From assembly GCA_050012215.1 (NCBI GenBank), contig JBEKHO010000017.1, positions 13,888-77,887 of the forward strand: a DNA stretch of 64,000 nucleotides. The letters run 5' to 3'. How positions within the stretch are numbered: the first letter of the stretch is position 1; each line of letters starts with the position of its first letter. Positions 6,690 through 35,070 of the stretch are shown here, piece by piece. The stretch comes from Steroidobacteraceae bacterium (GTDB taxonomy: Bacteria > Pseudomonadota > Gammaproteobacteria > Steroidobacterales > Steroidobacteraceae). The translations under genes and the position numbers were made by a program. The notes under the pieces are model-generated. The model was not told where the DNA came from and did not search any database. It saw nothing but the letters and a program-made list of their open reading frames with translations.

Positions 6690-6711
6690 GTCGAGACTCC
6701 CGTGTGCATTC

Positions 6712-9527: not shown

Positions 9528-9539
9528 GCACCGGCGCTG

Positions 9540-11696
<2,157 letters not shown>

Positions 11697-11998
11697 CTCG
11701 AGGTTCCATCACAGGGTTGAACGGGGGCGCAGAGTTTGCCACGGCAGGGCGGCCGTGTCGAAAAATTGTCAATCTTATCGCTGCTTTCGCGAAGCCGGGG
11801 CGGGCCGGCAGAATGGCTGCGAAAATCATGTCAAAGTCTTAATGCCGCCTTATCGCCCGTCCTGCAGGCCCCGGCCCGCGCGCATGGCCTCACGAACCGC
11901 CTGAAGTGCCTCCCGCGGTCAACGCGCTACCGGGGCCGGCCGTTGATTGTCGAGCCCGGGCCTCGATCCCGGGGCGTCGCCGACACTTTAGGAGACCC

Positions 11999-13594: not shown

Positions 13595-13607
13595 GAGGAG
13601 CGATTCG

Positions 13608-14813: not shown

Positions 14814-14825
14814 CAGAGGAATGCC

Positions 14826-15185: not shown

Positions 15186-15200
15186 AACGCTGTCTGGCGT

Positions 15201-16754: not shown

Positions 16755-16810
16755 GAGTCCATTACCCCCGGGTGCCGTCGGCGTGGCGGCAGCGTCGGAG
16801 CTTAACAACA

Positions 16811-18574
16811 TCAATAAGCAAGCGCGATTCCGTCCGCGCGCATTTCGCTCGCGGCCGCGTAAACGCGCGCAGAACCCTCGCTCCGATGTTCGATGCACTG
16901 GTATCTGCCGAATCCGCCGTCGGATGCACCGATCGGCCAGCCGCGCTCCGTCAGCCGGCGGCGCGTCTGCTCCGGCACCCCGGACTCCAATCGCAGGACG
17001 CCGCAGGCCCCAAGGCCGGGCTCATCCTCTCCCATGGTTTGAGGCGACCCTTGGTGGTGCCAACGCGGAGCGTCGCCCGCGGCCTGAATATCCAGGCCGT
17101 AGTCGACCCGGTTCACGATGATCTGCGTCTGTCCCTGGGGCTGCATGTCCGCTCCCATGACGCCGAAGGACATCCAAGGACGCGCACCCACTGCCGCAAA
17201 TCCTGGAATGATGGTCTGGAATGGCCGTTTGCCCGGCCGGTATGCGTTCGGGTGACCATCGATGAGCGAGAAAAGCTGACCGCGGCTTTGAAACATGAAG
17301 CCCAAGCCGTCGGCCACCAACCCCGAGCCGAGCCCGCGATAATTGGATTGGATCATCGACACCATCAGGCCGCCTGAGTCGGCGACCGTCAGATAAGTGG
17401 TATCGCCGCGGCTCGGGGCCTCGGCAGGCGCACCGGTGCGCACCCGATCCGGCCGGATGAGCTTCGCGCGCTCGGACGCGTATTCTTTCGAATTCAGCCG
17501 CTCGATCGGAACGCTCGAGAAATCGGGATCCGCGTAGTGACGGGCGCGGTCCTCGTAGGCCAATCGCTTGGCCTCCGCTTGCGTGTGGATCGATTCCGCC
17601 GATTGAAAGCCCATCCCGCGCAAATCGAAATTCTCGAGAATGTTGAGCATCTGCAGGGTCGCCAGGCCCTGCGTGTTGGCGCCCATCGCATAGACATCGA
17701 CACCTCGGTAAGAGCTCACCAGCGGCTCGACCCATTCGCTCCTGTGCGCCTTCAAGTCTTGGAACGACAGCCAACCGCCGATGCGCTTGAAATAAGCGTC
17801 GATGGCGAGCGCGATGGGGCCTTCATAGAAGGCCTCGCGGCCGCCTTCGGCGATCATGCGATAGGTGTGCGCCAGATCGGGGTTGCGGAACAACTCTCCC
17901 TCGCGCGGCGCGTGTCCTTGCGGAGCATACGTGCGCATGGCATTCGCCCACTCCTCCACGCCGGAACTCGCCTCACGGAACACCTCAAGATCCCGCTTCC
18001 AGTGAAAACCGATGACCTGCGGCACCGGTACCCCGCGCTCGCACAGGTCGATGGCCGGCGCGAGAATCTCGGACCATTTCAGCCGGCCGAACCGCTGATG
18101 CATGGTCCACCACGCATCCAGCGCGCCGGGCGTGGATACGGCGATTGCACCGTAGGGCGCGATCAGCCCGTGCGGCGAGCGACTGCGAACCATGTCGAGG
18201 CTCAATGATGTCGGAGAGCGGCCGGATCCGGCGAGACCTGCGAGTTTCGATATCTTCGGATCCCAGATCAACGCATAGCAGTCGCCGCCGATTCCGGATC
18301 CCGTGGGCTCCAAGAATCCGAGACATGCGGCGGCGGCCACTGCGGCGTCGGCGGCGCTGCCGCCACGCTTCAAGATCTCGATCGCGGTCAACGTCGCGTA
18401 GGGATGTGCCGTGCCCGCGGCGCCCGAGCATCCATAGACGGCGGACCTCGACGCGAAACTCGCGCCGGCAGGACGATCGCCCGCGCGCACATCGTAGCGC
18501 TCGTATCGCTGCGCTTCCGCGGACCATTGATCACTGAGGTTTTCCCTGCACGTTATGTTCATTTTACAGTCCAC
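16811..18574 (-). CDS. ggt: gamma-glutamyltransferase family protein (no signal peptide)
   Basis: 587 aa. Family motifs GGSAADAAVA, GIGGDCYAL and the autoprocessing/nucleophile site GDTTYLTVAD. The N-terminus has no hydrophobic leader. Confidence 0.8.
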   Translation of the reverse strand: MDCKMNITCRENLSDQWSAEAQRYERYDVRAGDRPAGASFASRSAVYGCSGAAGTAHPYATLTAIEILKRGGSAADAAVAAAACLGFLEPTGSGIGGDCYALIWDPKISKLAGLAGSGRSPTSLSLDMVRSRSPHGLIAPYGAIAVSTPGALDAWWTMHQRFGRLKWSEILAPAIDLCERGVPVPQVIGFHWKRDLEVFREASSGVEEWANAMRTYAPQGHAPREGELFRNPDLAHTYRMIAEGGREAFYEGPIALAIDAYFKRIGGWLSFQDLKAHRSEWVEPLVSSYRGVDVYAMGANTQGLATLQMLNILENFDLRGMGFQSAESIHTQAEAKRLAYEDRARHYADPDFSSVPIERLNSKEYASERAKLIRPDRVRTGAPAEAPSRGDTTYLTVADSGGLMVSMIQSNYRGLGSGLVADGLGFMFQSRGQLFSLIDGHPNAYRPGKRPFQTIIPGFAAVGARPWMSFGVMGADMQPQGQTQIIVNRVDYGLDIQAAGDAPRWHHQGSPQTMGEDEPGLGACGVLRLESGVPEQTRRRLTERGWPIGASDGGFGRYQCIEHRSEGSARVYAAASEMRADGIALAY

Positions 18575-18744: not shown

Positions 18745-18772
18745 CTCCTGATTGTCGCCGGTGGTAATAGAG

Positions 18773-21064
18773 ATGCAAGTTAGTCATCGATCACTTCTCT
18801 TGAGTCTCGCTACGCTCCTGGCGGTATCGGGCTGCGACATCAGTTCACCCTGGGGCAGCAGCAGCAGCGGCACAGCGTACGGTGCCGCGAGCCTCGCAGG
18901 CAATACCGGCGGCACCGGAGGTACCGGCGGCAGCGGTACCGCCACGAGCCCCAAGGGCGGCGTCGGCGGAGAAAGTGGCACCACGGGCACCGACGATACC
19001 GTCATCGCCACTGCTTCGAACTCCAATGTATCGGTCGCCGTGGGCTCGAACCAGACGATCGGCATCACATTCGCCTCGAGCGACGGGCGATCGATCACCG
19101 GATTCGGCATTTCTGGAAGCTTGAGCACGCTACCCGCCGGTTGGAGCGGTCCGCTGGCGTTCACCTGCAAGCTGGTCATGGCCGGCAGCGCGTGCGTGCT
19201 CAACTTGACCTACGCGCCCACGGCCTCCGACTCGGGCTCACTGGTCGTCAACTACGTCTATGTCGACAACGCGAACCTGTCGAAGGCACCCGGGGGTTCG
19301 GTCACGATCTCGTACCAGGCCATTGCCCAGAACAACGTCGTGGCGACCGCCATGCCCAGCGGTCAAATCAATGCACTCTTGGGCGCTGGCACACAATCGG
19401 TGAGCGTGAACTTCACCTCCGACACCAGCAACGCCACGATGGATGCGGCCATCACCAATTTCACGGTGAGCACCGATCTTTCCGCGCTGCCGGCCGGCTG
19501 GTCGAGCACATCGCCGTCCTTCTCCTGCGCCATCGTCACCACCGGCAACGGTTGCCAGCTCATGCTGAGCTATCAACCGGCCGCATCCGCGAGTGGAGTG
19601 CTCACGCTGAACTATGCGTACACGGACGATTCGGGCGCCTCCCGCGTCGGCAGCCTCAACATCCCGTACGCTACGACCTCTTCGAACAACGTCGTAGCGA
19701 CCTCATCGCCCGCCGGGCAGATCAACGCCGTCGAAAAAACCGGCAGCCAGGCCGTCGCCATCGATTTCAACACCGACGACGGACGGGCTGCGAGCGGGCT
19801 CATCGTCACCTCGAATCTGGCCGCGCTGCCGGCGGGCTGGCACAGCGGATCCAACAGCTTTTCCTGCGGCAGCGTGAGCACCGGCAACGGCTGCCATCTC
19901 GGACTCACCTACGCCCCCACGGCGCTCGGCTCAGGGACGCTCACACTCGCTTACGCCTACAATGACGATGCGGGGAATCAACAGACCGGCACCTTGAACG
20001 TTCCCTATGCCGCGACCACCAACGACAACGTGGTCGCGACGCCCTCGCCCGCCGGCCAAATCAACGCCGTGGTCGGACAGGGCTCGCAGAACGTCGCGGT
20101 GGTATTTACGACGGACGACACGCGCCTCGCCACCGCGCTGCAGGTCACCAGCGATTTGACGACACTGCCGGCCGGCTGGTCGAGCGCATCACCCAGCTTC
20201 GCTTGCACCACGGTGAGTACCGGCAGCACGTGCCAGCTCAACCTGTCGTACACGCCGACCGCGTACACGACGCCCGGTACACTGATGGTCGGATACAGCT
20301 ACAAGAACAACGCCAACCAGACAAAGACTGGGACGTTGAGCATCCCCTACCGTGCAATGACCAACGACACCATCGCTGCAAGCCCCAGCCAACCCTCGCT
20401 TGCGGTGATCATCGGCTCGCCCACCGCACCGACGCCGGTGACCATCACTTTCGCCACCGACGACGCCAATCCGGCCATCGGCGTGCCGGTCACCTCGAAC
20501 GCCCTCACCATCACTTCGGGACTCAACCCGCTGCCGCCCGGCTGGAGCGCGACCTCGACCACGTTCAGCTGTCTGACCGTGAGCGATGGGACGGTCTGTC
20601 AGCTGCCGCTGATCTATGCGCCCAGCGCAGTCACGAACGGCGCGCAAACGCTCGCGCTCGGCTACAGCTACGTGAACGACGCGGGATTGGCCAACACGGG
20701 CACCGCCACCGTCAGCTATCGCGCCATGTCGAACAATACGGTCGTTGCGGGAGTCAATCCCGGCTCGCCGCTCAATGTCGCAAGCGGCAGCGTCAACACC
20801 GTCACGGTGAGCTTCACGACGAGCGACGGCAATCCTGCCACGGGACTGTCGGTATCGGGGCTGTCGCTGCCGGCCGGCTGGAGCGGACCAAGCACCTTCA
20901 CCTGTCCCTCGGTCACCGGCAGCGCAGCGAGCTGCCAGCTCACGCTCACTTATGCACCGACCGTTCCGAGTGGCAGCGCCAACCTGGCGCTTGGATTCAG
21001 CTATACCAACAATGCCGGAAACTCAGGATCCGGTGCGGTGACCATCCAGTACAGCGCGAGTTGA
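18773..21064 (+). CDS. lipoprotein composed of six tandem two-cysteine Ig-like (choice-of-anchor-D / HYDIN-like) repeats
   Basis: ATG at 18773 gives MQVSHRSLLLSLATLLAVSGC (lipobox). A Gly/Thr-rich linker follows, then six repeats. Each repeat has NNVVAT-x-P-x-GQINA, LPAGWS, F-[ST]-C ... G-x-[GAST]-C-x-L-x-L-[ST]-Y-x-P. Confidence 0.8.
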   Translation: MQVSHRSLLLSLATLLAVSGCDISSPWGSSSSGTAYGAASLAGNTGGTGGTGGSGTATSPKGGVGGESGTTGTDDTVIATASNSNVSVAVGSNQTIGITFASSDGRSITGFGISGSLSTLPAGWSGPLAFTCKLVMAGSACVLNLTYAPTASDSGSLVVNYVYVDNANLSKAPGGSVTISYQAIAQNNVVATAMPSGQINALLGAGTQSVSVNFTSDTSNATMDAAITNFTVSTDLSALPAGWSSTSPSFSCAIVTTGNGCQLMLSYQPAASASGVLTLNYAYTDDSGASRVGSLNIPYATTSSNNVVATSSPAGQINAVEKTGSQAVAIDFNTDDGRAASGLIVTSNLAALPAGWHSGSNSFSCGSVSTGNGCHLGLTYAPTALGSGTLTLAYAYNDDAGNQQTGTLNVPYAATTNDNVVATPSPAGQINAVVGQGSQNVAVVFTTDDTRLATALQVTSDLTTLPAGWSSASPSFACTTVSTGSTCQLNLSYTPTAYTTPGTLMVGYSYKNNANQTKTGTLSIPYRAMTNDTIAASPSQPSLAVIIGSPTAPTPVTITFATDDANPAIGVPVTSNALTITSGLNPLPPGWSATSTTFSCLTVSDGTVCQLPLIYAPSAVTNGAQTLALGYSYVNDAGLANTGTATVSYRAMSNNTVVAGVNPGSPLNVASGSVNTVTVSFTTSDGNPATGLSVSGLSLPAGWSGPSTFTCPSVTGSAASCQLTLTYAPTVPSGSANLALGFSYTNNAGNSGSGAVTIQYSAS
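18995..21061 (+). repeat. six tandem coding repeats of about 330-370 nt
   Basis: The LP[AP]GW codons recur at 19130, 19487, 19826, 20165, 20531 and 20867. Nucleotide identity is partly retained (e.g. ctgccggccggctggtcgagc at 19487 and 20165). Confidence 0.85.
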
Positions 21065-21094
21065 GACCGGCGCCGGGGGCGGCGACCATCGGGC

Positions 21095-23419
21095 TCAATG
21101 CGGCGCGGGGGCCGGCTTTGCCGCCGCAGCGTGCTCGTGCGGCGCCGCTTCCGTACTGACCGGAATCTCGATATAGCTGTCGTTGTACCAGCGCACCTTG
21201 ATTGGCGTGTTGCCGTCGTCGATCGACTCCTCGCTCACGTCGTTGCCGGTGCCGTAGTTGATCTCCCGATCCGGGCGCTTGCTCACGCGCAGCACGATCA
21301 CCAGACGGCTGCCTGCCTCGAGCCGGCGGCTGGTCATGCGCTCGCCGACGAATGCCAATTTCTGCCGCTCCCCCGCTCTCAGCAGATGGCGGTGCACACG
21401 GTCGGCCGCATAACTCAAACGCAGCTCATCCGCCGGATTGAACAAGCGCACATAATCACCGGCCGCCGTCAACGCATAGGCGGCAATATCGATGTCCATA
21501 TCCATCTTGTTCACTGAAAAATCCAACCGCCCCGACAGCAGGCCATTGAAGTCCGTCGGGGTCTTGAACGAGTTGCTCACGAACGTCACGGAGTTGTGCG
21601 TGACGAGATTTCGTGTGATGAGGTCGCTCGGCGGCAGCCATGCTGCATCGCTGCGGTCCGTGAGGCTCACGGTCTGAGCGACCGCGGCGGCCTTCGCGCT
21701 CTTGCGCCTGATGAGCCGGCGTCCTTCGGCCGCGCCGGCCGCACCGGCGCTCAAATAGAATTTGAGCGATGCGTCGGCCATGGCCCGCAGCGACGACACA
21801 TGGCGCCACTCATTTGCGCCCATGATCTCGAAATTGACCCGGTCTTGGAGTTCGGCCGGGACCGCGCCGCCCTTCATTGCATGGTCGAGCCACTGATATC
21901 GCAGCTCGCGCAAATCGAGAAGCGCAGCCGCGTCCACGTCGTAGCCGCGCACCGAGGCGGACGCCCCGCGCTGCATGGCTTGATCGTCGTACGGTCCGAT
22001 GAGCAAGGTATGGTCCGCACGAGGGTTGTAGCGATGATGCTCCGTGAAATAGTAGAGCGCGGCGGGCTCTGCGGCGGCGAAATAACCGGTCATCGTGAGC
22101 ACGGGAAAGTCGACGCGGGCGAATTGACGCTGATACGGGATCATGCTCTGCCAAAACCGGTCGTAGCTCGGATGGTTCAACCAGCGGATGAAGATCGGGT
22201 TGGGCCGGCCATGGATCGTCCCCAGATCCCGATAGCGCCGTCCGCTTCGATACCATTTCTCGTCGAGCGCGCGCCAAACGGCATCGTCGCCGAAACTTGG
22301 ATCGACCTCCTCCCGGGTGTGGGTGACTTCCAGAGACCAGCGGTACCCCGAATTCTGAAAGACGCTGCCGGACATCGGCATATCGATGCCGGGCGCGGTC
22401 GGATCCGAGACTGCGATGGCCTTGAGCGCGGGCGGCATGCGCCCCGCCGCCGCCCAGGCCGTGAATCCGCTGTACCCCTCGCCGTACATCGCCACCCGCC
22501 CGTCGCTCCAGCCCTGCTTGGCGATCCAGTCGATGAGTGCCCGCGCCACCTCACCGTCGTGCTGATACGGAACGAAAGCGGCGGTTCCTGCCGCTGCGCG
22601 GCGCATGTCCGCGAACACGCCCACGTAGCCATGCGCTGCGCTCTCCTTGGCGGACACCGTAGGTCGATCGATGCCGAGCTCGAGCAGCGCGGGAAGCGCG
22701 GTGGAGGCGCCCTGCGGGCGAATCACGGTTGCGGCGATGCTGCCGCGCCCGGGCACCTTGATGCTGACCTCGCCCTCCGCATAGCGTTTCGCCTCATCCA
22801 CCGAGTTGAGCGGTCCCGCCAAAGGGGCCGATCCGCGGTAGGCCTCGAAGTACGCGTAGGCGGACAGCAGCGTCTCGGCCTCCTGCTGATTGATGATGTC
22901 CTTGGAGCGTTGCTCGTCGAGCAACCGCTGGAAATTCTCCTGAAACTCCTGGGCAGGAGCGGCGAGCCAGCCCGAGAGCATGAAGGCATCATGATCGTTG
23001 AGCTTGGAAAATACCTCTTGATACGCCATGTCGAACGCCTCGGAGAACGGCACGCGCCGTTGCGCCTCGATGGCCTTGGTGCGGACATAGATATCCAGCA
23101 CCCTGCCGCGCCCGACCGGGCGGCCCGAATCCGCGCGCCGGCGGCGCTCGTGCAGGGATTCCCGCGACTCGATCGCAGCGGAATAGTCGGCCGCCGCCAA
23201 TTGCAGCACCGATAGGTTCGCGAGATATCGATCTGGATCGGAGTCCTGATAAACGGGCAGCAGCCGCTCTGCCAGATCGCGCATGACCGCCGGCGTCTTT
23301 GCATCGACGGCCGAGAGCGGGGCGTGGAAGTCGAAGCTCTGAGCACCGCTCAACCGCGGCAACGCGACTGCGAACGCCGACACCAACACGAGACCCGCGA
23401 GGCGGCGGCCGAGCATCAT
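21095..23419 (-). CDS. secreted CocE/NonD (S15 X-Pro dipeptidyl-peptidase) fold protein with substituted catalytic triad and ~210-aa N-terminal helical extension
   Basis: Signal peptide MMLGRRLAGLVLVSAFAVALPRLSGAQS. It aligns by eye with Rhodococcus CocE around GYVGVFADMR...VAMYGEGYSGFTAWAAA...LKAIAV, TMTGYFAAA, LLIGPYDDQ and a C-terminal jelly-roll (FEIMGANEWRH). Confidence 0.8.
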   Translation of the reverse strand: MMLGRRLAGLVLVSAFAVALPRLSGAQSFDFHAPLSAVDAKTPAVMRDLAERLLPVYQDSDPDRYLANLSVLQLAAADYSAAIESRESLHERRRRADSGRPVGRGRVLDIYVRTKAIEAQRRVPFSEAFDMAYQEVFSKLNDHDAFMLSGWLAAPAQEFQENFQRLLDEQRSKDIINQQEAETLLSAYAYFEAYRGSAPLAGPLNSVDEAKRYAEGEVSIKVPGRGSIAATVIRPQGASTALPALLELGIDRPTVSAKESAAHGYVGVFADMRRAAAGTAAFVPYQHDGEVARALIDWIAKQGWSDGRVAMYGEGYSGFTAWAAAGRMPPALKAIAVSDPTAPGIDMPMSGSVFQNSGYRWSLEVTHTREEVDPSFGDDAVWRALDEKWYRSGRRYRDLGTIHGRPNPIFIRWLNHPSYDRFWQSMIPYQRQFARVDFPVLTMTGYFAAAEPAALYYFTEHHRYNPRADHTLLIGPYDDQAMQRGASASVRGYDVDAAALLDLRELRYQWLDHAMKGGAVPAELQDRVNFEIMGANEWRHVSSLRAMADASLKFYLSAGAAGAAEGRRLIRRKSAKAAAVAQTVSLTDRSDAAWLPPSDLITRNLVTHNSVTFVSNSFKTPTDFNGLLSGRLDFSVNKMDMDIDIAAYALTAAGDYVRLFNPADELRLSYAADRVHRHLLRAGERQKLAFVGERMTSRRLEAGSRLVIVLRVSKRPDREINYGTGNDVSEESIDDGNTPIKVRWYNDSYIEIPVSTEAAPHEHAAAAKPAPAPH

Positions 23420-25278
23420 CGGCGTCCCCGCGGCGTGCGCTTCCCGCCGGCGCCGGGCTGGGACGAAGCGGCTGGAACCGCCGGCGCGCGCGCCATCGCG
23501 TCGGGCCGCCCGGACTTGACGAGGTGAAGGACCGTCGAGAACAACGGGTGCGCCTCGCCCGGGCCGCCGATGTGAATGACACCCGTGTCCTTCAATTCCC
23601 CGTCGAACACGCTCGAGATGATCTCGAGCACGTCATCGTCGAGCGACCCGAACGTGCCGTCGATCAGCACCCAGGGCGGCGACTGAATCAGGATGCGCGC
23701 GAACACCAGGCACAGCTGCTCGTCCTGACTCAGCACCCGATCCCACCGATGGGTCTCATCGAGCATCAGCGCCAACCGCTCCACGCCCAGCCGGTAGAGC
23801 GCCCGCGTGTAGGAGTTGCCGCTGAAGCTCTCCGGCTTCAATGGATAGGCGAGCACCTCGCGCAGCGTGCCGCGCGGAAGATACGGCGTGCCGCGCGGCA
23901 GGTAAAAGATCTGTTCCCCGCGCGGGCGCGTGATTTCTCCGGAGCCCCACGGCCAAAGCCCCGCGAGCGCCCGGAACAACTGCGTCTTGCCGGTTCCCGG
24001 TGCGCCCAGAATGAGCACGCGTGCGCCCGCACCGATCACCGCTTGCGTCTCCTTGAGCCGGTCGGCATTGGCCTCCGAAACGATTTCCAGATTGGAGATC
24101 GCGATGACCCCGGGCTCGCCTTCCGTATAGGTGATCCGGCTTTCGAAACCTTGCGGCTCGTGCAGCGACACGAGCGCATGACGGAAGGTTGCGACGCGGA
24201 ACAACGTGGCGCGCCAATCGGCGATCGAGCTGAAGTTGTCGATGAACCAGCGGAGCGAGGACTGCGCCTGCGTGAACGCGCCGGCCGCCATCATCAAACC
24301 GCCGAACGAAATCTTGCCCATGAAGTACAGCGGCGCCGCCACCAGGATCGGAGCGACGTTCGTGATCCAGCCGAAGCCGGCGGTCACCCAGGTGAGATGG
24401 GTATGACCCCAGATGATGCGGCGGGTGGCGGCGAGCACGTCGCCCAGGTTGCGCTCCATGCGGCGCTTTTCATCCCCTTCGCCCTGTGCCAGCGCGATGG
24501 CATCCACGTGCTCGTTTGCCCGGACCAGCGAGAAGCGAAAATCCGCCTCACGCGCGTACCGCTCGGCGTTGCGATTCACCAGCCCCCGGCCCACCCAGTA
24601 GCTCATCAACGAACCGGCGCTCGCATAGATGATGGCTGCCCAGACCATGAAGCCGGGAATGGCGTAATCCTGATCTCCAATGCGGAAGCTGAATGCGCTC
24701 GACAGCCCCCACAGGACGCCTGCAAACGTGCCGAACAGGATCGACGACTGAAGCAGCCCGATTCCCAGATCGGCGGACAGCTGCGTGAGATGGCGCGCAT
24801 CTTCGTGCATCCGCTGGTCCGGGTTGACACCGATCGCTCCGGCGTTCGCCAGCCAGAATGCGCGCCGCGGCTTCATCCAATCGTCGATCAGACTGTGCAC
24901 CAATCCTTCGCGGAGCTTCAACTCGAGGGTCTCGTTGAGCCAACGCTGCACGACATTCAAGATCAGCAGGCAGCAGGCGATCAGAAAAAAAACACCGAGC
25001 TGGTAGAGAAACTCGCGCAAATCGCGTCGTGATAGAGCGTCGAAGAAGGGCTTGTTCCAGCGATTGAGGCGGATTTGGCCGTACGATGTGGCAGCCACGA
25101 TGAGCACGGTCACGATCATCAGCACCATGAGCGGCTTGCCGGCGCGTGAGGCAAAGATCGCGCGCGTCAGCATGCGGACCTGGGCCGTGAGGCCGGTCGG
25201 CGCCGTGTCGGCCTCCGAATCGGAGCGGGGGACGTTGGAAGAGCGATCAGTCACGGTGCCGGGCGCCTCGCCACACAT
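23416..25278 (-). CDS. ABC half-transporter of the SbmA/BacA/ABCD (ABC_membrane_2) type with degenerate nucleotide-binding domain
   Basis: 620 aa. The TMD begins ...LNRWNKPFFDALSRRDLREF, as in YddA/ABCD-type proteins. Walker A is GAPGTGKT. Q-loop, signature, Walker B and H-loop positions deviate (see findings). ATGA overlap with the downstream CocE-like gene. Confidence 0.8.
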   Translation of the reverse strand: MCGEAPGTVTDRSSNVPRSDSEADTAPTGLTAQVRMLTRAIFASRAGKPLMVLMIVTVLIVAATSYGQIRLNRWNKPFFDALSRRDLREFLYQLGVFFLIACCLLILNVVQRWLNETLELKLREGLVHSLIDDWMKPRRAFWLANAGAIGVNPDQRMHEDARHLTQLSADLGIGLLQSSILFGTFAGVLWGLSSAFSFRIGDQDYAIPGFMVWAAIIYASAGSLMSYWVGRGLVNRNAERYAREADFRFSLVRANEHVDAIALAQGEGDEKRRMERNLGDVLAATRRIIWGHTHLTWVTAGFGWITNVAPILVAAPLYFMGKISFGGLMMAAGAFTQAQSSLRWFIDNFSSIADWRATLFRVATFRHALVSLHEPQGFESRITYTEGEPGVIAISNLEIVSEANADRLKETQAVIGAGARVLILGAPGTGKTQLFRALAGLWPWGSGEITRPRGEQIFYLPRGTPYLPRGTLREVLAYPLKPESFSGNSYTRALYRLGVERLALMLDETHRWDRVLSQDEQLCLVFARILIQSPPWVLIDGTFGSLDDDVLEIISSVFDGELKDTGVIHIGGPGEAHPLFSTVLHLVKSGRPDAMARAPAVPAASSQPGAGGKRTPRGRR

Positions 25279-25300
25279 CGATGGACCAGGATACCAGTCC

Positions 25301-28288
25301 TCAGTACGCGATGCAGAGAACCTCGGCGGGAGTCGAAGGCACGGCCACCGAGTCGCCGTCGATCCGCGCCGGCGCTCCGCCGACTCTCGCCTCGCGCAGC
25401 GCAGCTGCGAGCGGTGGCTTCACGATGATCCGGCAGTCCACGCCGGAGGCAATATCGAAGCGCACCGTGCGAGCGTCGATCCGCCGCACGGTATAGCTGA
25501 GCGCGCCATAAAGTGTCGGCATCGCACGCACATGCACGCCGTCGCCCTCGATCCATTCCGGTGCCACTCCCGCCGCCAATACCAGCGCGCGGTCGGCTTC
25601 CCGCTCGTAAGCGAACAGGCTCCGAATCGCGAGAACGTACTCGGCAGAAATCCAGGTGTGCGGGAGATCGCCGACGTGCGCGGGCGCCTTGCGATCGCGC
25701 CACGCGATTTCCGGCCATTGATTCCAGGCCCGCGGACGCCTGTCGGCCAGGAAGAAGCGCAACAATTCGAGCGCCGCGCTGCGGTGCCCGAGCCGGACCA
25801 GCGCTCCGATGATGCGGATCTCGTAGGGAGTGTAGTTGGGCGAGGTTGCGTCATCGGAGCGCTTGGAGCGCCAATCCGCAAGATACTTGTCGAAGGTACG
25901 CTCGACGGCCGCTCGATCGAGACCTTGCGGTACATCCAACAGGTAAATTGCATTCGCGGTGGCCGTGGGATCGAAATCCGCCCACTCGACGCTACCGGGA
26001 ACAAAGTCGAGGTTGTGGGCCGCGCGGGTCGCCGCGACCGAGGCGAACAATCCCGTCCCCACCCGCTCGGCGAGCATCTGCGAGCGCCGCGCGAGATCAT
26101 CGGCGCGCCGGGCGTCCACACGTCCGCCATCCGCCGCGAGAATTCGAGCGAGGTCTGCCGCGTCGGTGAGGCCGCGAAGCGCCCAAAAGTCGTCCCAGTA
26201 CGAATGAACCGGCTGCGCGAGATAGCCTTCGTGGCTCACGGAAATCGGCAGCAGCCCGTCGCCTTCCAAGAGGCCGTCAATGCACTGCACCGCCTTCTGG
26301 ATGAAAGGCCACGCCTCGTCGAGAAACTGCCGATCACCGGTGAACCGGTAATAATCGGCGATCAATGCGAGAAGCTGACCGTGGCTGTCGTGCTCCACCA
26401 GCCAATCGGGGCCCTCCCGGTCCACGCAGCACGGTACGAAGCCATCGTCGCGCTGATGCGGCGCGTACCAGCGGATGAACTCGAGCACCTCGCGTGCATG
26501 TCCCATTCGAAGCAGCGCCGCGCTCATCATGGCCCCATCTCGAATCCACGAGCGCGTATATCGCCTCGGACCCGGCTGCAGCGCGGGCCCCGATCGGGTG
26601 ATCAAGATATGCGCCGTCGCAGTGAGCGCCGCGTCGATGGCCTCGCCCGCCCAACCGCTCCCCGACCACTGATCCGTGCGCATCCGCGACTTCCAGTCGA
26701 ATGCCGGCAGGCCCGCCGGGCTGGCCTGTGCGGCGGGCCGCGAGCGCAGGGTCCGATCGCAGGAGGCGCCCGGCTGCAATGCGAGGTCGAATTCGAATGC
26801 GCCCGTCGCAAAGCCGAAGTCGTCGCGTATCGACCCGGCCGTCGGCAGTGCGCCGACGCGAAGCCTCGAGGCGACGAATCCGTCGTCGAACGACAGTGCG
26901 CCGAAGCGGACGCTCCCATCGGCCCTCACGGCGAGGCTTCTGTTCACCCGCAGCACCCCCTCTTGCCATTCAAGATCGTGAACGCGGCTGACCCCGCCCA
27001 CATCGCGAAAACTTTGCCAGGGAGGCGTGACCTGGAACGGACGCACAATGACGTACAGGGCTGCCTCCAACGGCGCCCCGGTTCTGTTGTCGACGCGATA
27101 GCGCACCCGCACCTCGCCATCCTCGGCGGCTTGCGCGATCACGGTGAGGCGCCATTGTTCGGTCTCCCACAGCACCGCGGGGACGGGCACCCAGCGATCC
27201 TCGAGCGCGGGGCACGGCTCGAAATCCGCCCAGGTGAAAAGCCTCGGACCGATTCGCAACATGGGCTCGAGCGAGAACGACGCTTCGGCCACTTCCACCA
27301 TGCCATCGCTGTTCATCAGCGCGCACTCGGTTCCGTTCGATCGGCCGATCGGCGTCCATTCGCTTTGCTCGCGATGCAACCAGCGCGGATGCCAACCTCG
27401 CTCCTCGCCTTTCGCGACCGCATACCAAAACGCCTCGATGGAGCGCGAGAACTCGAACGGTTGAACGCGCAGTGTCGCACCTGCGCAAGGACTCGACAGC
27501 TCCAGGCGCAGGAATCGCGTCTTGAGGTCCGGTAGATATACGTAGCTGCGCGCACCTCCCGCCTGCGCGGCGACGTGCACGACTTCCCACCGCTTGCTGG
27601 TGTTCGATGCGCAAATTCGGAATCCCGTGGACGGCGCGCCGTCAGGCCAGTCGATGATGAGGCCGCCGATCCGGCGCGGCAGCGCGCAATCGACCACGAT
27701 CCAAGGCCGCCGATCGCCGGGATCGGGTTTCCAGCCCTGCCCGGTAAGCGCCGCATCGGCCCCAAATCCGGGCCGCTCGCTGGAAGCGCTCGCCGTCGGC
27801 GCCCGGTCCGGTGTCAAATCCTCGATCTCGAGATCCGCGATCCAGAGCGAGCCGCGGCCACCCTCACCGGCCACGATGGCGATTTCGACGAATCCCAGTT
27901 CCGTGAGCGCACTGCCGCTCGCGGGACCCCAGGCAAACTCGATCTCGCGGCTCTCGATGGTCCACCGTCGCCAGCGTGCGGGTGGACTCTGGTTTTTGGC
28001 GACGTGACGCCAAACGTTGCGGCCCGTGGCGTCGAGCAGCTTTATCTCGAGATCATTGGGCGGCCCGTGTCCGCGCACGCGCAGGTGCACGGCGTACTCG
28101 TTCGGCATGGGGCGGGGGCAGCTGCGCCTCGCGACCGCAAACCCCTTGCCGCCCTTGAAATCGAAATTGAGACGTAGCGCCGAGGTCTTTCCGGAGGGAA
28201 CGACGGACACCTCGAGGGTGGCGTTGCCGGACACGGTCGGCTGCCACGCCGACAACGGAATCGGGTCGCGCGCGCGCGCCGGCGACAT
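25301..28288 (-). CDS. large leaderless protein: N-terminal beta-sandwich + F5/8 type C (discoidin) domain + (alpha/alpha)6 glycoside-hydrolase-like (GH15-like) region
   Basis: 995 aa. Discoidin-like segment PWIVVDCALPRRIGGLIIDW...KTRFLRLEL. Later RYTRSWIRDGAMMSAALLRMG and SYWDDFWALRG resemble six-hairpin glycosidases. No signal peptide. The start overlaps the GGDEF stop by 1 nt (TGATG). Confidence 0.6.
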   Translation of the reverse strand: MSPARARDPIPLSAWQPTVSGNATLEVSVVPSGKTSALRLNFDFKGGKGFAVARRSCPRPMPNEYAVHLRVRGHGPPNDLEIKLLDATGRNVWRHVAKNQSPPARWRRWTIESREIEFAWGPASGSALTELGFVEIAIVAGEGGRGSLWIADLEIEDLTPDRAPTASASSERPGFGADAALTGQGWKPDPGDRRPWIVVDCALPRRIGGLIIDWPDGAPSTGFRICASNTSKRWEVVHVAAQAGGARSYVYLPDLKTRFLRLELSSPCAGATLRVQPFEFSRSIEAFWYAVAKGEERGWHPRWLHREQSEWTPIGRSNGTECALMNSDGMVEVAEASFSLEPMLRIGPRLFTWADFEPCPALEDRWVPVPAVLWETEQWRLTVIAQAAEDGEVRVRYRVDNRTGAPLEAALYVIVRPFQVTPPWQSFRDVGGVSRVHDLEWQEGVLRVNRSLAVRADGSVRFGALSFDDGFVASRLRVGALPTAGSIRDDFGFATGAFEFDLALQPGASCDRTLRSRPAAQASPAGLPAFDWKSRMRTDQWSGSGWAGEAIDAALTATAHILITRSGPALQPGPRRYTRSWIRDGAMMSAALLRMGHAREVLEFIRWYAPHQRDDGFVPCCVDREGPDWLVEHDSHGQLLALIADYYRFTGDRQFLDEAWPFIQKAVQCIDGLLEGDGLLPISVSHEGYLAQPVHSYWDDFWALRGLTDAADLARILAADGGRVDARRADDLARRSQMLAERVGTGLFASVAATRAAHNLDFVPGSVEWADFDPTATANAIYLLDVPQGLDRAAVERTFDKYLADWRSKRSDDATSPNYTPYEIRIIGALVRLGHRSAALELLRFFLADRRPRAWNQWPEIAWRDRKAPAHVGDLPHTWISAEYVLAIRSLFAYEREADRALVLAAGVAPEWIEGDGVHVRAMPTLYGALSYTVRRIDARTVRFDIASGVDCRIIVKPPLAAALREARVGGAPARIDGDSVAVPSTPAEVLCIAY

Positions 28289-30237
28289 CAGGCGGCGGCG
28301 CCCATGTCCACCAGCCGGACCCGCTCGTCGGCCGCGGCGGACTCGAACTCCTCGCAGATCACGGTCAAATCATCCTTGTCCTGCGCGACCACCGCACTGA
28401 TCAAGCAGGCGCGATTCCGGCCGCGGCGCTTCGCCTCGTAAAGCGCCTTGTCGGTGAGGCTGATCGCGCTGTCGAGCGAGATCTCCGTATCCGCCCCCGG
28501 CATCGGAAAGCACGCGTAGCCGATCGAAATCGTGCACCGGATGGCCTGGCCGTTCCAGAGCACCGGATCGCGGCGCACCGCCTGAAGGAGCCTCTCGACC
28601 GTCCGGTCCGCCTGTTCGGGCGTGATCGGATCGAGCACGGCCAGGAATTCCTCACCGCCCCAGCGCACCAGCTTATCGGTCTCGCGCAACGCCGCGGACA
28701 GACGGTGGCTCACGGTGGCGAGCACGGCGTCTCCGGCCGGATGTCCCAACGTATCGTTGATCCGCTTGAAATGGTCCAGATCCGCGAGCAGCACGCAACC
28801 TCCGACCGGCCGGCCGCCGTCGACGCTCAGTACGTGCTCGTTAAAATAACGGCGATTGCGCAGGCCCGTCAATGCATCGCGTTCGCTGTTGAAGCGCAGA
28901 CGATCGTTCGCGCGCCGCACGCGTGCGAACGCCCAGGCGAGCGCCGCACAGATGAAGGTCACGAAGCCCGCCGCTGCCATGATCAGTTGTTGTTTCAGCC
29001 GTTGGCCACGCATTTCCGAGGCTTTGAGTGCGTTGTCCCGCCGCAGCAGCTCGAGCTCGCGGGCGCGCCTCTCGTCGTCGAACTTGGCCGAGAGCTCGAG
29101 GAATGCGCGTTGGCGCGTGCCGGTCATGATTTTCTCGCCCACTGCATCGTATTGATGATAGGCCTGAATCGCCATCATCAGATAGCCTGCGTGTTCGAGC
29201 GCGTCGGCGTACTCGCGCAGATCCTCCTTGGCGTCGAGGAGATTGTCGCCCTTGACCGCGTTGTCTATCGAGGCTTCGGCGAGCTTCTCACCCTCCTTGA
29301 TGTTGCCGAGACCGATGTATGCCAATCCCTCGTTGAACAGCACGATGCTCTCGTCGCCGCTGCCGCGCATCTGGGACACCAATGGCAGCGACTGTTTCGA
29401 GTACTTGAGAGACTCGGCGTAGTCGCGCGTCTTGAGATAGGAATCGCCGAGATTCAGGTAGGCATGTGCGAGCCACTTGGTGCTGTCCGAGCGCGTGGCA
29501 TGCTCGAGCGCCGCAAGACTGGCGCGCCGCTCCGCCGGCCGGTCACCCTGACGGTCCGCGATGTCCGATGCGCGCACTTCCACCTCGGTCAGCGCCGCCT
29601 CATCGCCGATCGCGGACGCCAGGCGTCGCGCGCTCTCGAGCTGGTCGGACGCGCGATCGTAGTTGCCGGTATCTGTGTAGATGAGCGTGAGCCAGAGCAT
29701 CGCATGGATGCTGCGCTGATCGTCGTGCATGTCGCGGGCCAGGTCCAGGGACTCTTCGAGAAACGGCAGTGCCGCCTCAGCCTGTCCCAGGGTCCGCAAG
29801 GTATTGCCCCGAAGTATCGACACACGATAGCGCTCCGCGTCGGAGTCGATGGCCGTCATGTCGATCTGGTTGAGTTCCTCGCGAGCCGCCGCGGATTGCG
29901 CGTGCTCGTAGTGGGAATAGGCGCGCACGTAATGCTCGGCCAGAACGGCCGACTGATCCCCGTCCTCCGCGATCGCCTTCAACCGTGCAATCGTCGCATC
30001 GACATCCGCATCACGGCGGGTGTCGGCGTAGACCATCGCGCGGACCTCCAGGAACTGCACTTCGGAGGCGCGCCCTTTCGCGAGGGACGGCGAGTCGATG
30101 ATTTTCTCCGCGCGCGCGGGATCCGACCAATCGAGCATCTCGATTCGATCAGAAAAGGACAGATCTGCCGCCCCCACAGTCGTGGTGGCAGTCCATGCCA
30201 ACAGCCCCATCAAGGCCCATTTTCTAGAAAGGCGCAT
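28288..30237 (-). CDS. diguanylate cyclase with periplasmic TPR sensor region (signal peptide, TM, GGDEF)
   Basis: ATG at 30237 lies 5 nt after an AGGTGG RBS (a GTG at 30246 is also possible). TPR-like repeats, a coiled coil, one TM (LIMAAAGFVTFICAALAWAF), an active-site RWGGEEF and an I-site RETD five residues upstream. Confidence 0.85.
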   Translation of the reverse strand: MRLSRKWALMGLLAWTATTTVGAADLSFSDRIEMLDWSDPARAEKIIDSPSLAKGRASEVQFLEVRAMVYADTRRDADVDATIARLKAIAEDGDQSAVLAEHYVRAYSHYEHAQSAAAREELNQIDMTAIDSDAERYRVSILRGNTLRTLGQAEAALPFLEESLDLARDMHDDQRSIHAMLWLTLIYTDTGNYDRASDQLESARRLASAIGDEAALTEVEVRASDIADRQGDRPAERRASLAALEHATRSDSTKWLAHAYLNLGDSYLKTRDYAESLKYSKQSLPLVSQMRGSGDESIVLFNEGLAYIGLGNIKEGEKLAEASIDNAVKGDNLLDAKEDLREYADALEHAGYLMMAIQAYHQYDAVGEKIMTGTRQRAFLELSAKFDDERRARELELLRRDNALKASEMRGQRLKQQLIMAAAGFVTFICAALAWAFARVRRANDRLRFNSERDALTGLRNRRYFNEHVLSVDGGRPVGGCVLLADLDHFKRINDTLGHPAGDAVLATVSHRLSAALRETDKLVRWGGEEFLAVLDPITPEQADRTVERLLQAVRRDPVLWNGQAIRCTISIGYACFPMPGADTEISLDSAISLTDKALYEAKRRGRNRACLISAVVAQDKDDLTVICEEFESAAADERVRLVDMGAAA

Positions 30238-30352
30238 ACCCGCCACCTAGCACTGCATCGCAGCATCCTCGTATAGCCAATCTGATCATGGGGTTGTCTC
30301 AGGTGGCGTGACGGAGGTCATCTCGTGAGCTTTTGTTGGCCGAATTTGCAAG

Positions 30353-32215
30353 CTATTGGCCGGGGATGTGATTCGAGTCCTCATGGCCCGATTCGGCGGT
30401 GGAGCCCCCGGTGGTCGCCCCCCAGGCGGACGCTCCTTCGGCCGCCAGAGCGGCATGCAGGCGCTCGCGAACTTCGCGGGTATGAATCGGCAGCACGATC
30501 ACGAGGCCGGGCCCTGCCGCCTCCAGCAGGGCCCGGGCTGCGCTCTCTTCGTCGGCCTGCCGTTCGATGCGATCGCCGGGAACGCCGGCGGCCAAGAGGG
30601 CGCTCTCGAGGAGCGTGGGCACCTCGCCGAGCGAGCGACCCCGCAGCATGAGAGGCAGTTCCTTGATCATCACGCGGTCGGGGTCGAAGCGGGCGGCCGT
30701 GCGGGCGAGCTCGGCGATCGCCTGGTCGTCCCGATTGCCGGCCTGCCCCAGCAGCAACGACATGCGCCCCGCATGAAGAGACCGAGCCGCAGCGAGCAGC
30801 TGCTCCAGGCCGTGCGGATTGTGCGCATAGTCGATGAGCACGGTCGCTCCCCGGAAATCCCAGCGCTCGAGCCGACCGGGATTATCCTCGGGACGGCGGC
30901 CGAAATGCTGCGCGGCGCGCCGAATGTCGGGCACCGGCAGTTCCAGGACGGCGGCCGTCAAAGTGGCGGCGGCGAGATTCGCGACGTTGTAGCGCGCGGC
31001 GCCTCCCCAGGTCAGGGGCAGCGTCGACAGGTCTCCGATCTCGTGGTCCTCGCCCCGATGGTGAAGCAGCACAAGGCGGCCGCGCACGCCGCAGGTGCTG
31101 CCGTCGCGCCGTCGCAATGCCTCGAGCGCAGGATGCGCATGGTCCATGGCGAACAACGCACGGCGGGCGTGAGCCGCGTGCGGCAACCGATCGGCGGCCG
31201 CCATCAGGGTGTGATCGTCGGCGTTCAGCACCAGCGTGCCGTCCCGGCTTACGGTACGCGCCACGACCAATTTCGTTTCCGCCAGATCGTCCGCGTTTTC
31301 GATGCCGTATTCGCCGAAGTGATCCGCGCTGACATTGGTGACCACGGCCGCGTCCGCCCGGTTGACCGCGAGCCCGCGCCGCAGGATGCCCCCGCGTGCG
31401 GTTTCCAGCACTGCCAGCGCGACATCGGCGCGTCGCAGCACCACCCGTGCCCCCGCCGGTCCCGAATAGTCGCCAAGCGCCACGGCACGGCCGGCGACGA
31501 ACACCCCCTCGGTGCAACTGTATCCGGGCACGGCTCCCGCAGCCGCCGCTATCGATGCGAGCAATCGTACGGTCGTCGTCTTGCCATTGCTGCCCGTCAC
31601 GAGCGCGGTGGGAATGTCGTGCAAGGCGCTCCAGGGTACGGTATCGACGGAGGGCGGCGCCGCGCGCGGCCAACAGAGGCTTCCCGTTCCGGCGCCGATG
31701 GAAATCTCCTCGTCGTCCTCGAACAGCGGGAGCTTGTGCCGGGAGGCGGCCGCGCGCAGCTTCACCAGTGCGTGATTACGCTCAGCCGCCGCGCGCGCGG
31801 CGAGCACGGCAGTGGGGTCGCTGCCAAGATTTTGTGCGCGATCGAAGACGGTGACGCCGGCTTCGGCCGCCGCGCTCTCCCAGGCCCATTCGGATAGCTC
31901 GGTGGCGGTCAATTGCGCGTCGGGCGGCGCGCGAAAAACCAGGAAGGTGCTGTCACCGGCGCGATCGACCACCGGCGCGGGGTCGGGCCAGCCGAGCGCT
32001 TTCGACACATCCCGAACGCTCGCGGCCCAGCGCTCGAGCGCGCGCGGCTCCGTGGCGGCCGCTCCGATCGGTGTGAGCGTCACGGCGGGGCCGTCGAAGT
32101 AGCGGCTGGGTCCGGTCAGGCGCCGCGAGTCGATGAAGCCGTGGTTCGGTTCCGGCTCGGCGGGCTGCTCGGGCTCGGCGGCCCGCTCAGGCTTTGCCTG
32201 GGATTCCTCGGCCAT
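30353..32215 (-). CDS. cyanophycin-synthetase paralog lacking the ATP-grasp domain (N-like region + Mur-ligase domain)
   Basis: ATG at 32215 lies 1 nt after the cphA stop. Mur-ligase P-loop VTGSNGKTTTVRLL. C-terminal Mur-ligase domain (IDYAHNPHGL). No ATP-grasp segment is recognisable between the N-terminal region and the P-loop. Confidence 0.7.
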   Translation of the reverse strand: MAEESQAKPERAAEPEQPAEPEPNHGFIDSRRLTGPSRYFDGPAVTLTPIGAAATEPRALERWAASVRDVSKALGWPDPAPVVDRAGDSTFLVFRAPPDAQLTATELSEWAWESAAAEAGVTVFDRAQNLGSDPTAVLAARAAAERNHALVKLRAAASRHKLPLFEDDEEISIGAGTGSLCWPRAAPPSVDTVPWSALHDIPTALVTGSNGKTTTVRLLASIAAAAGAVPGYSCTEGVFVAGRAVALGDYSGPAGARVVLRRADVALAVLETARGGILRRGLAVNRADAAVVTNVSADHFGEYGIENADDLAETKLVVARTVSRDGTLVLNADDHTLMAAADRLPHAAHARRALFAMDHAHPALEALRRRDGSTCGVRGRLVLLHHRGEDHEIGDLSTLPLTWGGAARYNVANLAAATLTAAVLELPVPDIRRAAQHFGRRPEDNPGRLERWDFRGATVLIDYAHNPHGLEQLLAAARSLHAGRMSLLLGQAGNRDDQAIAELARTAARFDPDRVMIKELPLMLRGRSLGEVPTLLESALLAAGVPGDRIERQADEESAARALLEAAGPGLVIVLPIHTREVRERLHAALAAEGASAWGATTGGSTAESGHEDSNHIPGQ

Positions 32216-32216
32216 C

Positions 32217-35054: not shown

Positions 35055-35070
35055 CGATATCCCTTCCCTG

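Follow-up and report, generated by a model that had tools for sequence, protein, structure and literature searches.

A four-gene cluster of a Steroidobacteraceae bacterium that may import and cleave beta-1,2-glucan-type glycans through a BacA/SbmA-type transporter

Four closely packed genes on the minus strand of a 64-kb stretch of Steroidobacteraceae bacterium DNA (contig JBEKHO010000017.1; the whole stretch is called the window below) encode a cyclic di-GMP (c-di-GMP) cyclase, a large protein without a leader, an ATP-binding cassette (ABC)-type transporter with a degenerate ATPase domain and a secreted CocE-like protein. This raises the question what such a combination could do. The reading that we favour, to which we give a probability of about one half, is that the cluster is a module for ATP-independent import of large beta-1,2-glucan-type cargo, which would then be cleaved in the cytoplasm. 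Open reading frames (ORFs) of the window were listed, junctions were read directly and proteins were scanned for Pfam and NCBIfam domains. Public gene calls were those of contig CAYPHD010000008.1 from the metagenome-assembled genome (MAG) GCA_964410305.1, in which the window proteins are 100% identical.

The four ORFs measure 774, 620, 995 and 652 amino acids (aa). The cyclase, with tetratricopeptide repeats (TPR) and a GGDEF domain, runs from 28288 to 30246 (652 aa from a GTG start; in the public gene calls it begins with the ATG at 30237 and has 649 aa). It is followed on the minus strand by the leaderless 995-aa protein, for which we use the working name GH995 (25301-28288), by the transporter (23416-25278, 620 aa) and by the CocE-like protein (21095-23419, 774 aa). 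Cyclase and GH995 are joined by a TGATG stop/start overlap (28286-28290), in which base 28288 is common to the cyclase stop and the GH995 start. A spacer of 22 nt separates GH995 from the transporter (25279-25300), and an ATGA stop/start overlap links the transporter to the CocE-like gene (23416-23419). The same ATGA overlap occurs in the public gene calls of L085-L087 (L001-L090 and further labels denote homologous loci, sampled from GH995, the CocE-like protein and the cyclase). A first-pass annotation of this DNA had reported the four minus-strand genes with two overlaps, one of 1 nt and one ATGA, and a gap of 22 nt, and direct reading confirmed all three junctions. Its domain content agrees with the Pfam and NCBIfam scans, and it had also been right in calling the 995-aa protein leaderless (the N-terminus has no hydrophobic stretch) and in giving the CocE-like protein a signal peptide.

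Close spacing of this sort is ordinary for operons in high-GC genomes, and, judged from the spacing, one transcript spanning all four genes is likely. A scan of 20800-30600 for consensus promoters and terminators gave counts no higher than those in shuffled sequence and no site in the intergenic regions, a result that says nothing on transcript structure. With one start or the other, 106-115 nt separate the cluster from the cyanophycin gene upstream. Many shadow ORFs overlie the four genes.

Which of the four belong together was read from the comparison of loci. Sampling from GH995 yielded 80 genome loci, compared by tblastn and ORF clustering, and 45 of these are flanked on each side by 4 kb or more. 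A transporter of the ABC_membrane_2 type lies near GH995 in 38 of the 45 well-flanked loci. Loci with both genes include Steroidobacteraceae, Casimicrobiaceae, Chromatiaceae, Nevskiales, Deltaproteobacteria and Verrucomicrobia; order and strand vary among them and transporter identity goes down to 25-30%, with Pfam confirming a single type of transporter. Look-ups from the CocE-like protein gave the order cyclase-GH995-transporter-CocE in all three loci, with cyanophycin genes upstream in one. The co-occurrence of four genes put forward in the first-pass annotation stands in so far as these loci show a conserved unit, but the partners are unequal and the core consists of GH995 and the transporter. 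Conservation is layered: a deep GH995-transporter core, a clade-specific pseudoenzyme (the CocE-like protein) and a facultative cyclase. The cyanophycin, NPCBM-like, gamma-glutamyltranspeptidase (GGT) and POT genes around them are local synteny.

The comparison also bears on a link to cyanophycin, which had earlier been left open. CphA1 was found in five GH995 loci by ORF clustering and in six by tblastn, and cyanophycin genes adjoin the module only in the window's closest relatives, which are Steroidobacteraceae MAGs, and in L086. L012, L037, L085, L087, L089 and all distant loci have none. As the adjacency does not reach past close relatives, a cyanophycin link was rejected as a general feature.

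The gene neighbourhoods of the core pair point to a glycan. Among the well-flanked loci without a CocE-like gene, 19 of 27 carry at least one beta-1,2-glucan-type gene beside leaderless GH995 and the transporter. SOGP-type neighbours (about 1,120 aa; Pfam SOGP_N, SOGP_2nd and SOGP_4th) have as best PDB match 5h3z, the 1,2-beta-oligoglucan phosphorylase of Lachnoclostridium (3e-174). Other neighbours are Cgs-type GH94 proteins and GH1 beta-glucosidases, and in three Chromatiaceae loci the order is OpgG-OpgH-GH1-transporter-GH995-GH94, OpgG-OpgH lying directly upstream.

Distant members of the GH995 family, found by a search of family representatives, mostly have an N-terminal signal peptide. 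A metagenome scan provided 80 loci of this signal-peptide set, with the pattern LacI, TonB-dependent receptor, GH144, binding protein, two permeases and GH995, and with MsmK, GH1 and GH94 nearby. The GH144 neighbours (PF10091-type, 6e-77) have XCC2207 (4.5e-105) and the endo-beta-1,2-glucanase of Chitinophaga (CpSGL) as best PDB matches, and the binding protein matches Lin1841, the sophoro-oligosaccharide binder of Listeria (6e-76). BacA-like transporter, CocE-like gene and cyclase were each absent from all 80 of these loci. In the set of GH995 proteins to which the window belongs, a leader occurs in one of 77, and the locus of that protein (L061) is without the transporter. The loci of this set gave no match to the Lin1841-like binding protein or to the TonB-dependent receptor representative of the signal-peptide loci, and a GH144 match in one locus (L053). 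This dichotomy between leader and transporter is the strongest argument on the function of the core pair. It suggests that where GH995 is periplasmic, small products enter by a binding-protein importer, and that cytoplasmic GH995 is paired with a type of transporter for large cargo.

Two further observations were made in the signal-peptide set. The loci L125, L127, L133, L147, L152 and L154 (about 1-13200 in each) have the look of a canonical beta-1,2-glucan utilisation locus of Gram-negative bacteria, though one that is undescribed. In seven loci signal-peptide GH995 is followed by 'm13', a protein of 480-670 aa without Pfam match, which often precedes an MsmK-type ATPase; examples directly after GH995 are L093:3857-5581, L104, L128 and L131-L133.

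GH995 itself has the predicted architecture of a glycosidase. Its AlphaFold2 (AF2) model (pLDDT 82) has two beta domains at the N-terminus, of which the second is a CBM32-like discoidin domain, and further comprises a beta-supersandwich, an (alpha/alpha)6 barrel and a C-terminal beta domain. The discoidin domain (F5/8 type C, PF00754, 5.2e-10; aa 166-266, window 27491-27793, minus strand) matches CBM32 modules in the PDB when the family profile is used, best 2rva (3e-10). The barrel, delimited by the secondary structure of the model, would occupy aa 547-892 (25613-26650, minus strand). Within it R575, Y577, R579, W581, R583, D584, E632, D634, S683, S685, H686, E687, G688, Y689, W698, D699, E768, D771, D773, Y822, E823, R825, D874 and H877 are invariant in the leaderless set, and their equivalents are also invariant across the signal-peptide subfamily. 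With a GH94/GH15-type fold and invariant acidic and basic residues in the modelled pocket, GH995 looks like an enzyme.

In Foldseek searches GH94 cellobiose phosphorylases rank first (E 9e-15 to 1e-10, template modelling (TM) score 0.45-0.55); the list also contains GH116, a GH15-like dextran dextrinase, SOGP and cyclic glucan synthase, and TM is modest throughout. Profile alignment with hhalign against a neighbouring GH94 gave a probability of 48% (E 2e-4, aa 375-914), and GH94 and SOGP profiles together 42-48%, values that were used for fold relatedness only and not for the assignment of catalytic residues. In the low-confidence alignment (48%) the GH94 motif DWND falls on a gap beside the invariant SxSHEGY of GH995, and the phosphate-binding His of QYTH falls on a non-His position near the invariant E823. 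The non-His position and the nearby Glu give a hint that GH995 might be a hydrolase and not a phosphorylase.

The sequence places GH995 in none of the families at hand. Its catalytic part matched no Pfam, NCBIfam or PDB sequence family. Searches of the PDB gave one weak match (E 0.02) with the single sequence, and with the profile only CBM32 modules and a weak match to MmpH. The Pfam scan gave no match to the GH94 model, for which true GH94 neighbours score 4e-115 to 2e-144, and GH995 stays below the cut-offs of GH15/GDE-type models (GDE_C 16.1 bits against 21; GH95_cat 16.1 against 27; TIGR01577 37.9 against 820.7). Membership of the SGL clan of beta-1,2-glucanases (GH144, GH162, GH189 and GH192-194) was rejected, as there was no PF10091 match and no SGL among the 50 Foldseek matches listed. 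The unassigned 'Group 4' of PMC12102758 was likewise rejected as a home for GH995, being a different and small group. By sequence GH995 thus matches no GH94, GH15/GDE or SGL-clan family, and its predicted fold is GH94-like. At least 866 clusters at 50% identity match the family at E<=1e-30, and all named homologs are annotated as 'hypothetical' or 'discoidin domain-containing'.

The transporter is a half-transporter with a membrane domain (about aa 37-370) and a degenerate ATPase domain (about aa 391-600). Pfam detects ABC_membrane_2 (2.7e-35), SbmA_BacA (9.8e-23) and ABC_tran (2.5e-7), the first two well above their cut-offs (122.5 bits against 24.4, and 81.5 against 24), and the best PDB match is Rv1819c, the mycobacterial BacA (6tqe, 4.4e-53). 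Walker A (GAPGTGKTQ) is intact. The Q-loop Gln has become Arg or Gly, the signature reads LSQDEQ with loss of the second Gly, Walker B reads LIDG with Gly in place of Glu, and the H-loop His is replaced by Gly. An alignment of 24 window-clade sequences shows the same pattern throughout, which bears out the earlier call of a degenerate ATPase. If the transporter forms a homodimer, its two ATP sites would be impaired to the same degree.

Transporters linked to GH995 in other lineages can be ordered by the state of this domain. Luteolibacter-type loci have a canonical ATPase (GPSGTGKSS, LSLGEQQR, LDE and the His). The sister group of the window clade (54-56% transporter identity) is partly degenerate, keeps the Glu and has no CocE-like gene. 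In Chromatiaceae, Nevskiales and Deltaproteobacteria Walker A, Walker B and H-loop are fully degraded, and in two of these ABC_tran is not detected by Pfam. Finally, Akkermansiaceae have transporters of about 350 aa beside an SOGP gene after GH995 (L068:16398-17492, L077:16059-17120 and L079:10180-11235), in which no remnant of an ATPase domain was detectable. All classes keep R112, E116, R123, NPDQR152-156, E159, D160, W190, E244, R248 and others in the membrane domain; the conserved acidic residues among these are E116, D154, E159, D160 and E244. The GH995-linked lineage thus appears to display intermediate steps of ATPase loss, and, on the evidence of these alignments, the ATPase is dispensable in it. 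Because relatives tied to the same enzyme have a degraded ATPase domain or none, ATP-independent transport like that of SbmA is plausible for the window protein as well.

At L076:2263-3549 (Verrucomicrobia) an ATPase-less SbmA-like ORF of 428 aa lies upstream of GH995 with three genes between. The ATPase-less transporters of Akkermansiaceae and Verrucomicrobia form the end point of the decay series and are a possible clue to a natural glycan cargo of SLiPT transporters.

The CocE-like protein has a Sec-type leader (MMLGRRLAGLVLVSAFAVALPRLSGAQS; signal peptide aa 1-26). Its AF2 model (pLDDT 75) consists of an all-alpha N-domain (about aa 42-212), an alpha/beta-hydrolase (about aa 213-480) and a beta-sandwich (about aa 528-755). 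Pfam calls Peptidase_S15/CocE_NonD, TIGR00976 scores 131.8 bits against a cut-off of 66.3, and Foldseek aligns the model with CocE at E 1e-28 and TM 0.71. The CocE triad of Ser117, Asp259 and His287 corresponds to Gly, Ala and Asp in the window protein. When this was aligned with 21 syntenic orthologs, the three columns held G (21) and A (1); A (17), S (4) and D (1); and D (16), E (5) and T (1). None of the orthologs has a Ser-Asp-His triad, although the replacing residues vary somewhat. The loss of catalytic residues, already noticed in the window protein, is thus shared by 21 orthologs, and for that reason we consider the protein a conserved pseudoenzyme. The gene was found in the Steroidobacteraceae-like clade only (21 loci), directly after the transporter. 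It lies only downstream of transporters with the Glu-to-Gly replacement and is always there where the sequence allows. Most likely the pseudoenzyme would be a non-catalytic partner of the transporter that binds or delivers the cargo. In view of the esterase ancestry one could speculate that it recognises ester substituents of periplasmic glucans.

The cyclase (Pfam GGDEF, 2.5e-37, 128.6 bits, aa 456-612, and TPR families) has one N-terminal hydrophobic segment and a second at about aa 421-441. The TPR region between them (about aa 100-370) is predicted to be periplasmic. In the translation the active site GGEEF is intact and preceded at canonical spacing by an RETD I-site. The protein gives the impression of an active diguanylate cyclase that is anchored in the membrane and has its TPR sensor in the periplasm. 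Its orthologs (74-95% identity) are less strictly placed than the other members. In the 80 loci sampled from GH995 the cyclase lies upstream of the module in nine, and in L036 it is downstream of the CocE-like gene and a glucose-6-phosphate dehydrogenase (G6PD) gene. Look-ups from the cyclase gave L089 with the four-gene cluster, L088 with the cyclase about 6 kb away from GH995-transporter-CocE, and L090 with an ortholog of 74% identity in an unrelated context. In L088 GH995-transporter-CocE is followed by an RND efflux operon on the opposite strand, then the cyclase and then cyanophycinase-CphA1-CphA2. With one adjoining, one 6 kb off and one unrelated, the cyclase was rejected as an obligate member; it is a facultative neighbour of the module. 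Since the cyanophycin trio of L088 directly follows the cyclase, these two may have an association of their own. In L089 the four-gene cluster is otherwise intact, but a gene of the IS605 OrfB/TnpB type (14937-16097), on the opposite strand, interrupts it between GH995 and the transporter.

Taken as a mechanism, the operon would be a clade-specific elaboration of a widespread pair, a BacA/SbmA-type inner-membrane transporter and a cytoplasmic, GH94-like GH995. The transporter would bring an oligosaccharide of the beta-1,2-glucan type, or else a glucan that is cyclic or periplasmic, across from the periplasm to the cytoplasm. It would do so without hydrolysis of ATP, probably driven by protons as in SbmA. 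The leaderless GH995 would then cleave or open the imported glycan, for instance cyclic or long chains that are beyond the attack of an exo-phosphorylase. In other lineages an adjoining 1,2-beta-oligoglucan phosphorylase or Cgs-type GH94, in either case along with GH1, could complete the conversion to glucose-1-phosphate and glucose. The Steroidobacteraceae-like clade would have added the periplasmic CocE-fold pseudoenzyme as a partner that binds or delivers the cargo, and in a sub-clade the membrane TPR-GGDEF cyclase could couple periplasmic sensing to c-di-GMP. SbmA is proton-driven, and both Rv1819c/BacA and SbmA import large hydrophilic cargo (PMC8442886, PMC10960864). Of the functional proposals in the first-pass annotation, ATP-independent transport resembling that of SbmA is plausible, given the ATPase-degraded and ATPase-less relatives, and a cytoplasmic glycosidase-like enzyme acting on imported cargo fits the comparative data well. 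A peptide or glycopeptide as that cargo does not fare as well, a beta-1,2-glucan-type glycan being likelier from the SOGP, GH94, GH144 and Lin1841-like neighbours.

Several points weigh against import of such a glucan. By tblastn the 64-kb window contains no OpgGH, GH94, SOGP, GH1, GH144 or G6PD gene. Within the clade of the window G6PD, seen in five loci, is the one neighbour related to sugars, and the local genes are rich in peptide and amino-acid functions (cyanophycin, GGT, POT, M20, M3 and amidases). The substrate is proposed from gene neighbourhoods alone. The likeness of GH995 to GH94 is remote (hhalign 48%, Foldseek TM about 0.45-0.55). The intact Walker A means that the window transporter may bind nucleotide, or even hydrolyse it slowly. 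To our knowledge, the characterised cargo of BacA/SbmA transporters comprises peptides, cobalamin and bleomycin and no glycans. In addition, c-di-GMP commonly switches on polysaccharide production, and a c-di-GMP cyclase fits such production better than catabolism. The lack of another beta-glucan gene in the window, the peptide-rich surroundings, known cargo without glycans and a c-di-GMP control that suits polysaccharide production are the reasons why the rival explanations keep appreciable weight.

The least remote of these keeps the logic of import and cleavage with a different cargo, another glycan or a glycoconjugate that is large and hydrophilic. It could be a beta-glucan with other linkages, a chito-oligosaccharide or chitosan-oligosaccharide, or a periplasmic glucan peculiar to Steroidobacteraceae and bearing a substituent that the pseudo-esterase would recognise. 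Neighbours specific for beta-1,2-glucan are missing from the window clade, the best matches of the discoidin domain are CBM32 modules that bind chitosan and glucan, and GH94-fold enzymes act on several beta-glycosides. Moreover, GH995 and the endo-glucanase GH144 occur together in signal-peptide loci, and because they co-exist there GH995 must do something that GH144 does not. However, the pocket invariants are identical in the window clade and in members from beta-1,2-glucan loci, and all specific neighbours of the family (SOGP, Cgs-type GH94, GH144, Lin1841-like and OpgGH) point to beta-1,2-glucan. Another glycan seems to us rather unlikely. Uptake of a peptide or glycopeptide, in which the dead S15-fold protein would bind cargo for a proton-driven SbmA/BacA-like importer, perhaps tied to cyanophycin or gamma-glutamyl peptides, we regard as unlikely. 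The CocE/NonD fold is that of peptidase family S15, several characterised BacA/SbmA cargoes are peptides (PMC8442886), the window has cyanophycinase, CphA1, CphA2, GGT, a POT transporter and M20 and M3 peptidases nearby, and in L088 the cyclase lies directly beside the cyanophycin genes. But the most conserved partner of the transporter has the fold of a glycosidase and not of a peptidase, the peptide-related neighbours are lost outside close relatives, and in distant loci the GH995-transporter pair is accompanied by enzymes for beta-1,2-glucan and not by peptide genes.

The direction could also be the reverse. GH995 would then be a transglycosylase or cyclase acting on a cytoplasmic glucan, the transporter would export the product, the pseudoenzyme would handle it outside and c-di-GMP would switch the system on, comparable to Cgs with Cgt. 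Translational coupling of a GGDEF cyclase to GH995 agrees with the common activation of polysaccharide production by c-di-GMP, and the Cgs-type GH94 and OpgGH neighbours are genes of a biosynthetic type. Mycobacterial BacA is reported to move cobalamin in both directions (PMC10960864). However, the module lacks a glycosyltransferase, its SOGP, GH1 and G6PD neighbours are catabolic, signal-peptide GH995 stands in uptake loci (with TonB receptor, GH144 and binding-protein importer), the cyclase is facultative, and the transporter is of another type than Cgt, which does not appear among its PDB sequence matches. Export is as improbable in our judgement as peptide uptake. That the four genes form no functional unit, and are neighbours through the shared ancestry of close relatives, is very improbable. 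The NPCBM-like, GGT and POT flanks are also syntenic in the same sub-clade, and because they are equally syntenic local synteny alone proves little for the cyclase. Against this stand the GH995-transporter pairing, which outlasts changes of order and strand across phyla, the stop/start overlaps, the leader/transporter dichotomy and the co-variation of the CocE-like gene with the Glu-to-Gly transporter.

Compared with known systems, import and cleavage of beta-1,2-glucan by this module would come closest to the beta-1,2-glucan utilisation clusters (lin1839-1841 of Listeria innocua, SGL of Chitinophaga pinensis and XCC2207 of Xanthomonas). GH995 homologs sit in such clusters, and uptake followed by cytoplasmic phosphorolysis and hydrolysis is the common logic. 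These clusters have a binding-protein-dependent ABC importer, in contrast to the BacA/SbmA-type transporter of the window, where GH995 is without leader. Their SGL, SOGP, GH94, GH1 and sophoro-oligosaccharide binder are not in the window and occur only in homologous loci elsewhere. A resemblance also exists with Cgs (ChvB/NdvB) and Cgt (ChvA/NdvA), a GH94-fold protein and an exporter-fold ABC-type transporter on beta-1,2-glucan, as proposed here. However, the window system has no glycosyltransferase domain, a transporter of another family with degenerate ATPase, and homologs in catabolic contexts.

The single components differ from their relatives as well. Rv1819c and the SLiPT proteins SbmA/BacA are homodimeric, exporter-fold importers of large hydrophilic molecules, and the window transporter matches both Pfam models. 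It differs from Rv1819c by replacement of the catalytic Glu, the Q-loop Gln, the signature Gly and the H-loop His, and from SbmA, which has no ATPase domain and couples to protons by a glutamate ladder, in keeping an ATPase-like domain. From the SbmA/BacA family as a whole the system would be set apart by its predicted glycan cargo, a dedicated cytoplasmic enzyme and a periplasmic pseudoenzyme. GH995 is like GH94 in its supersandwich, (alpha/alpha)6 barrel and C-terminal beta domain, with remote profile similarity, but lacks the Pfam GH94 match and has two extra N-terminal beta domains including CBM32. The CocE-like protein shares the three-domain fold of CocE/NonD hydrolases (cocaine esterase, alpha-amino acid ester hydrolase and PepX) and differs by loss of the triad, the Sec signal peptide, a 170-aa helical N-domain and its place after a transporter.

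The literature searched gave nothing on the gene combination, on a link between BacA/SbmA and glucan, or on this system in descriptions of the XCC2207 cluster, in line with the initial impression that the combination is not a described system. A 2025 review gives as beta-1,2-glucan transporters the binding-protein ABC importer and the Cgt exporter only (PMC11842490). GH995 is not among the beta-1,2-glucan enzyme families described (PMC12102758, PMC11842490), and the new families GH192-194 are unrelated to it (PMC12102758). The comparison suggests a system that works like a beta-1,2-glucan utilisation cluster, but with a BacA/SbmA-type transporter and an enzyme family not found in the beta-1,2-glucan literature searched.

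Around the cluster the window contains further genes. Directly upstream on the minus strand the cyanophycin set is complete, with a Peptidase_S51 cyanophycinase (35071-35979), a full-length CphA1 (32217-35054) and a CphA2-like protein (30353-32290) that has the Mur-ligase half only and is 620 aa long in the public gene calls. A 997-aa ORF on the plus strand, antisense to cphA1 (32133-35126), is almost certainly a high-GC shadow ORF and no gene. On the other side a convergent protein of 763-770 aa with NPCBM_assoc/ASH/HYDIN-type Ig-like domains (18752-21064, plus strand) is followed by GGT (16811-18574) and a POT/PTR2 peptide transporter (15201-16898). This NPCBM-like/GGT/POT block is co-conserved with the four-gene cluster in L001, L002, L005, L007, L012, L037, L085 and L086. 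The left flank (988-15158) holds a penicillin amidase (988-3366), an M3 peptidase (4545-6689), an amidohydrolase (6712-8103), an M20 peptidase (8118-9527) and a DUF1800/DUF1501 pair (11906-14813). In other loci, G6PD directly adjoins the module, next to GH995 or the CocE-like gene, in L010, L018, L036 and L060. In two relatives, L085 (17209-20268) and L086 (18078-20295), the cluster is followed downstream, after a few genes, by a hybrid sensor kinase of about 1,475 aa whose periplasmic domains are of the Reg_prop/Y_Y_Y kind; this type of domain is seen in oligosaccharide-sensing regulators of polysaccharide utilisation loci.

GH995 is a candidate new enzyme family that could fill a gap in the turnover of osmoregulated periplasmic glucans (OPG) and cyclic glucans. 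On the most far-reaching reading it would be the founding member of a glycoside hydrolase family that acts on beta-1,2-glucan. The transporters linked to it present every stage of ATPase decay, while membrane domain and partner enzyme stay the same, which makes them a test system for the link between ABC and SbmA-like transporters, and they suggest a physiological cargo other than peptides. The joint proposition that BacA/SbmA-type transporters physiologically carry periplasmic or cyclic beta-1,2-glucans of about 3 kDa, and that the GH995-linked lineage is a conversion series from ABC transporter to proton-driven SLiPT, going from a canonical ATPase domain through Glu-less and fully dead ones to none, goes further and is rather unlikely. 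The triad-less CocE-fold protein offers a clean case in which a transport system has taken over an enzyme fold, and on the same far-reaching reading it would be, in the window clade, the first periplasmic protein dedicated to delivering cargo to a transporter of this type.

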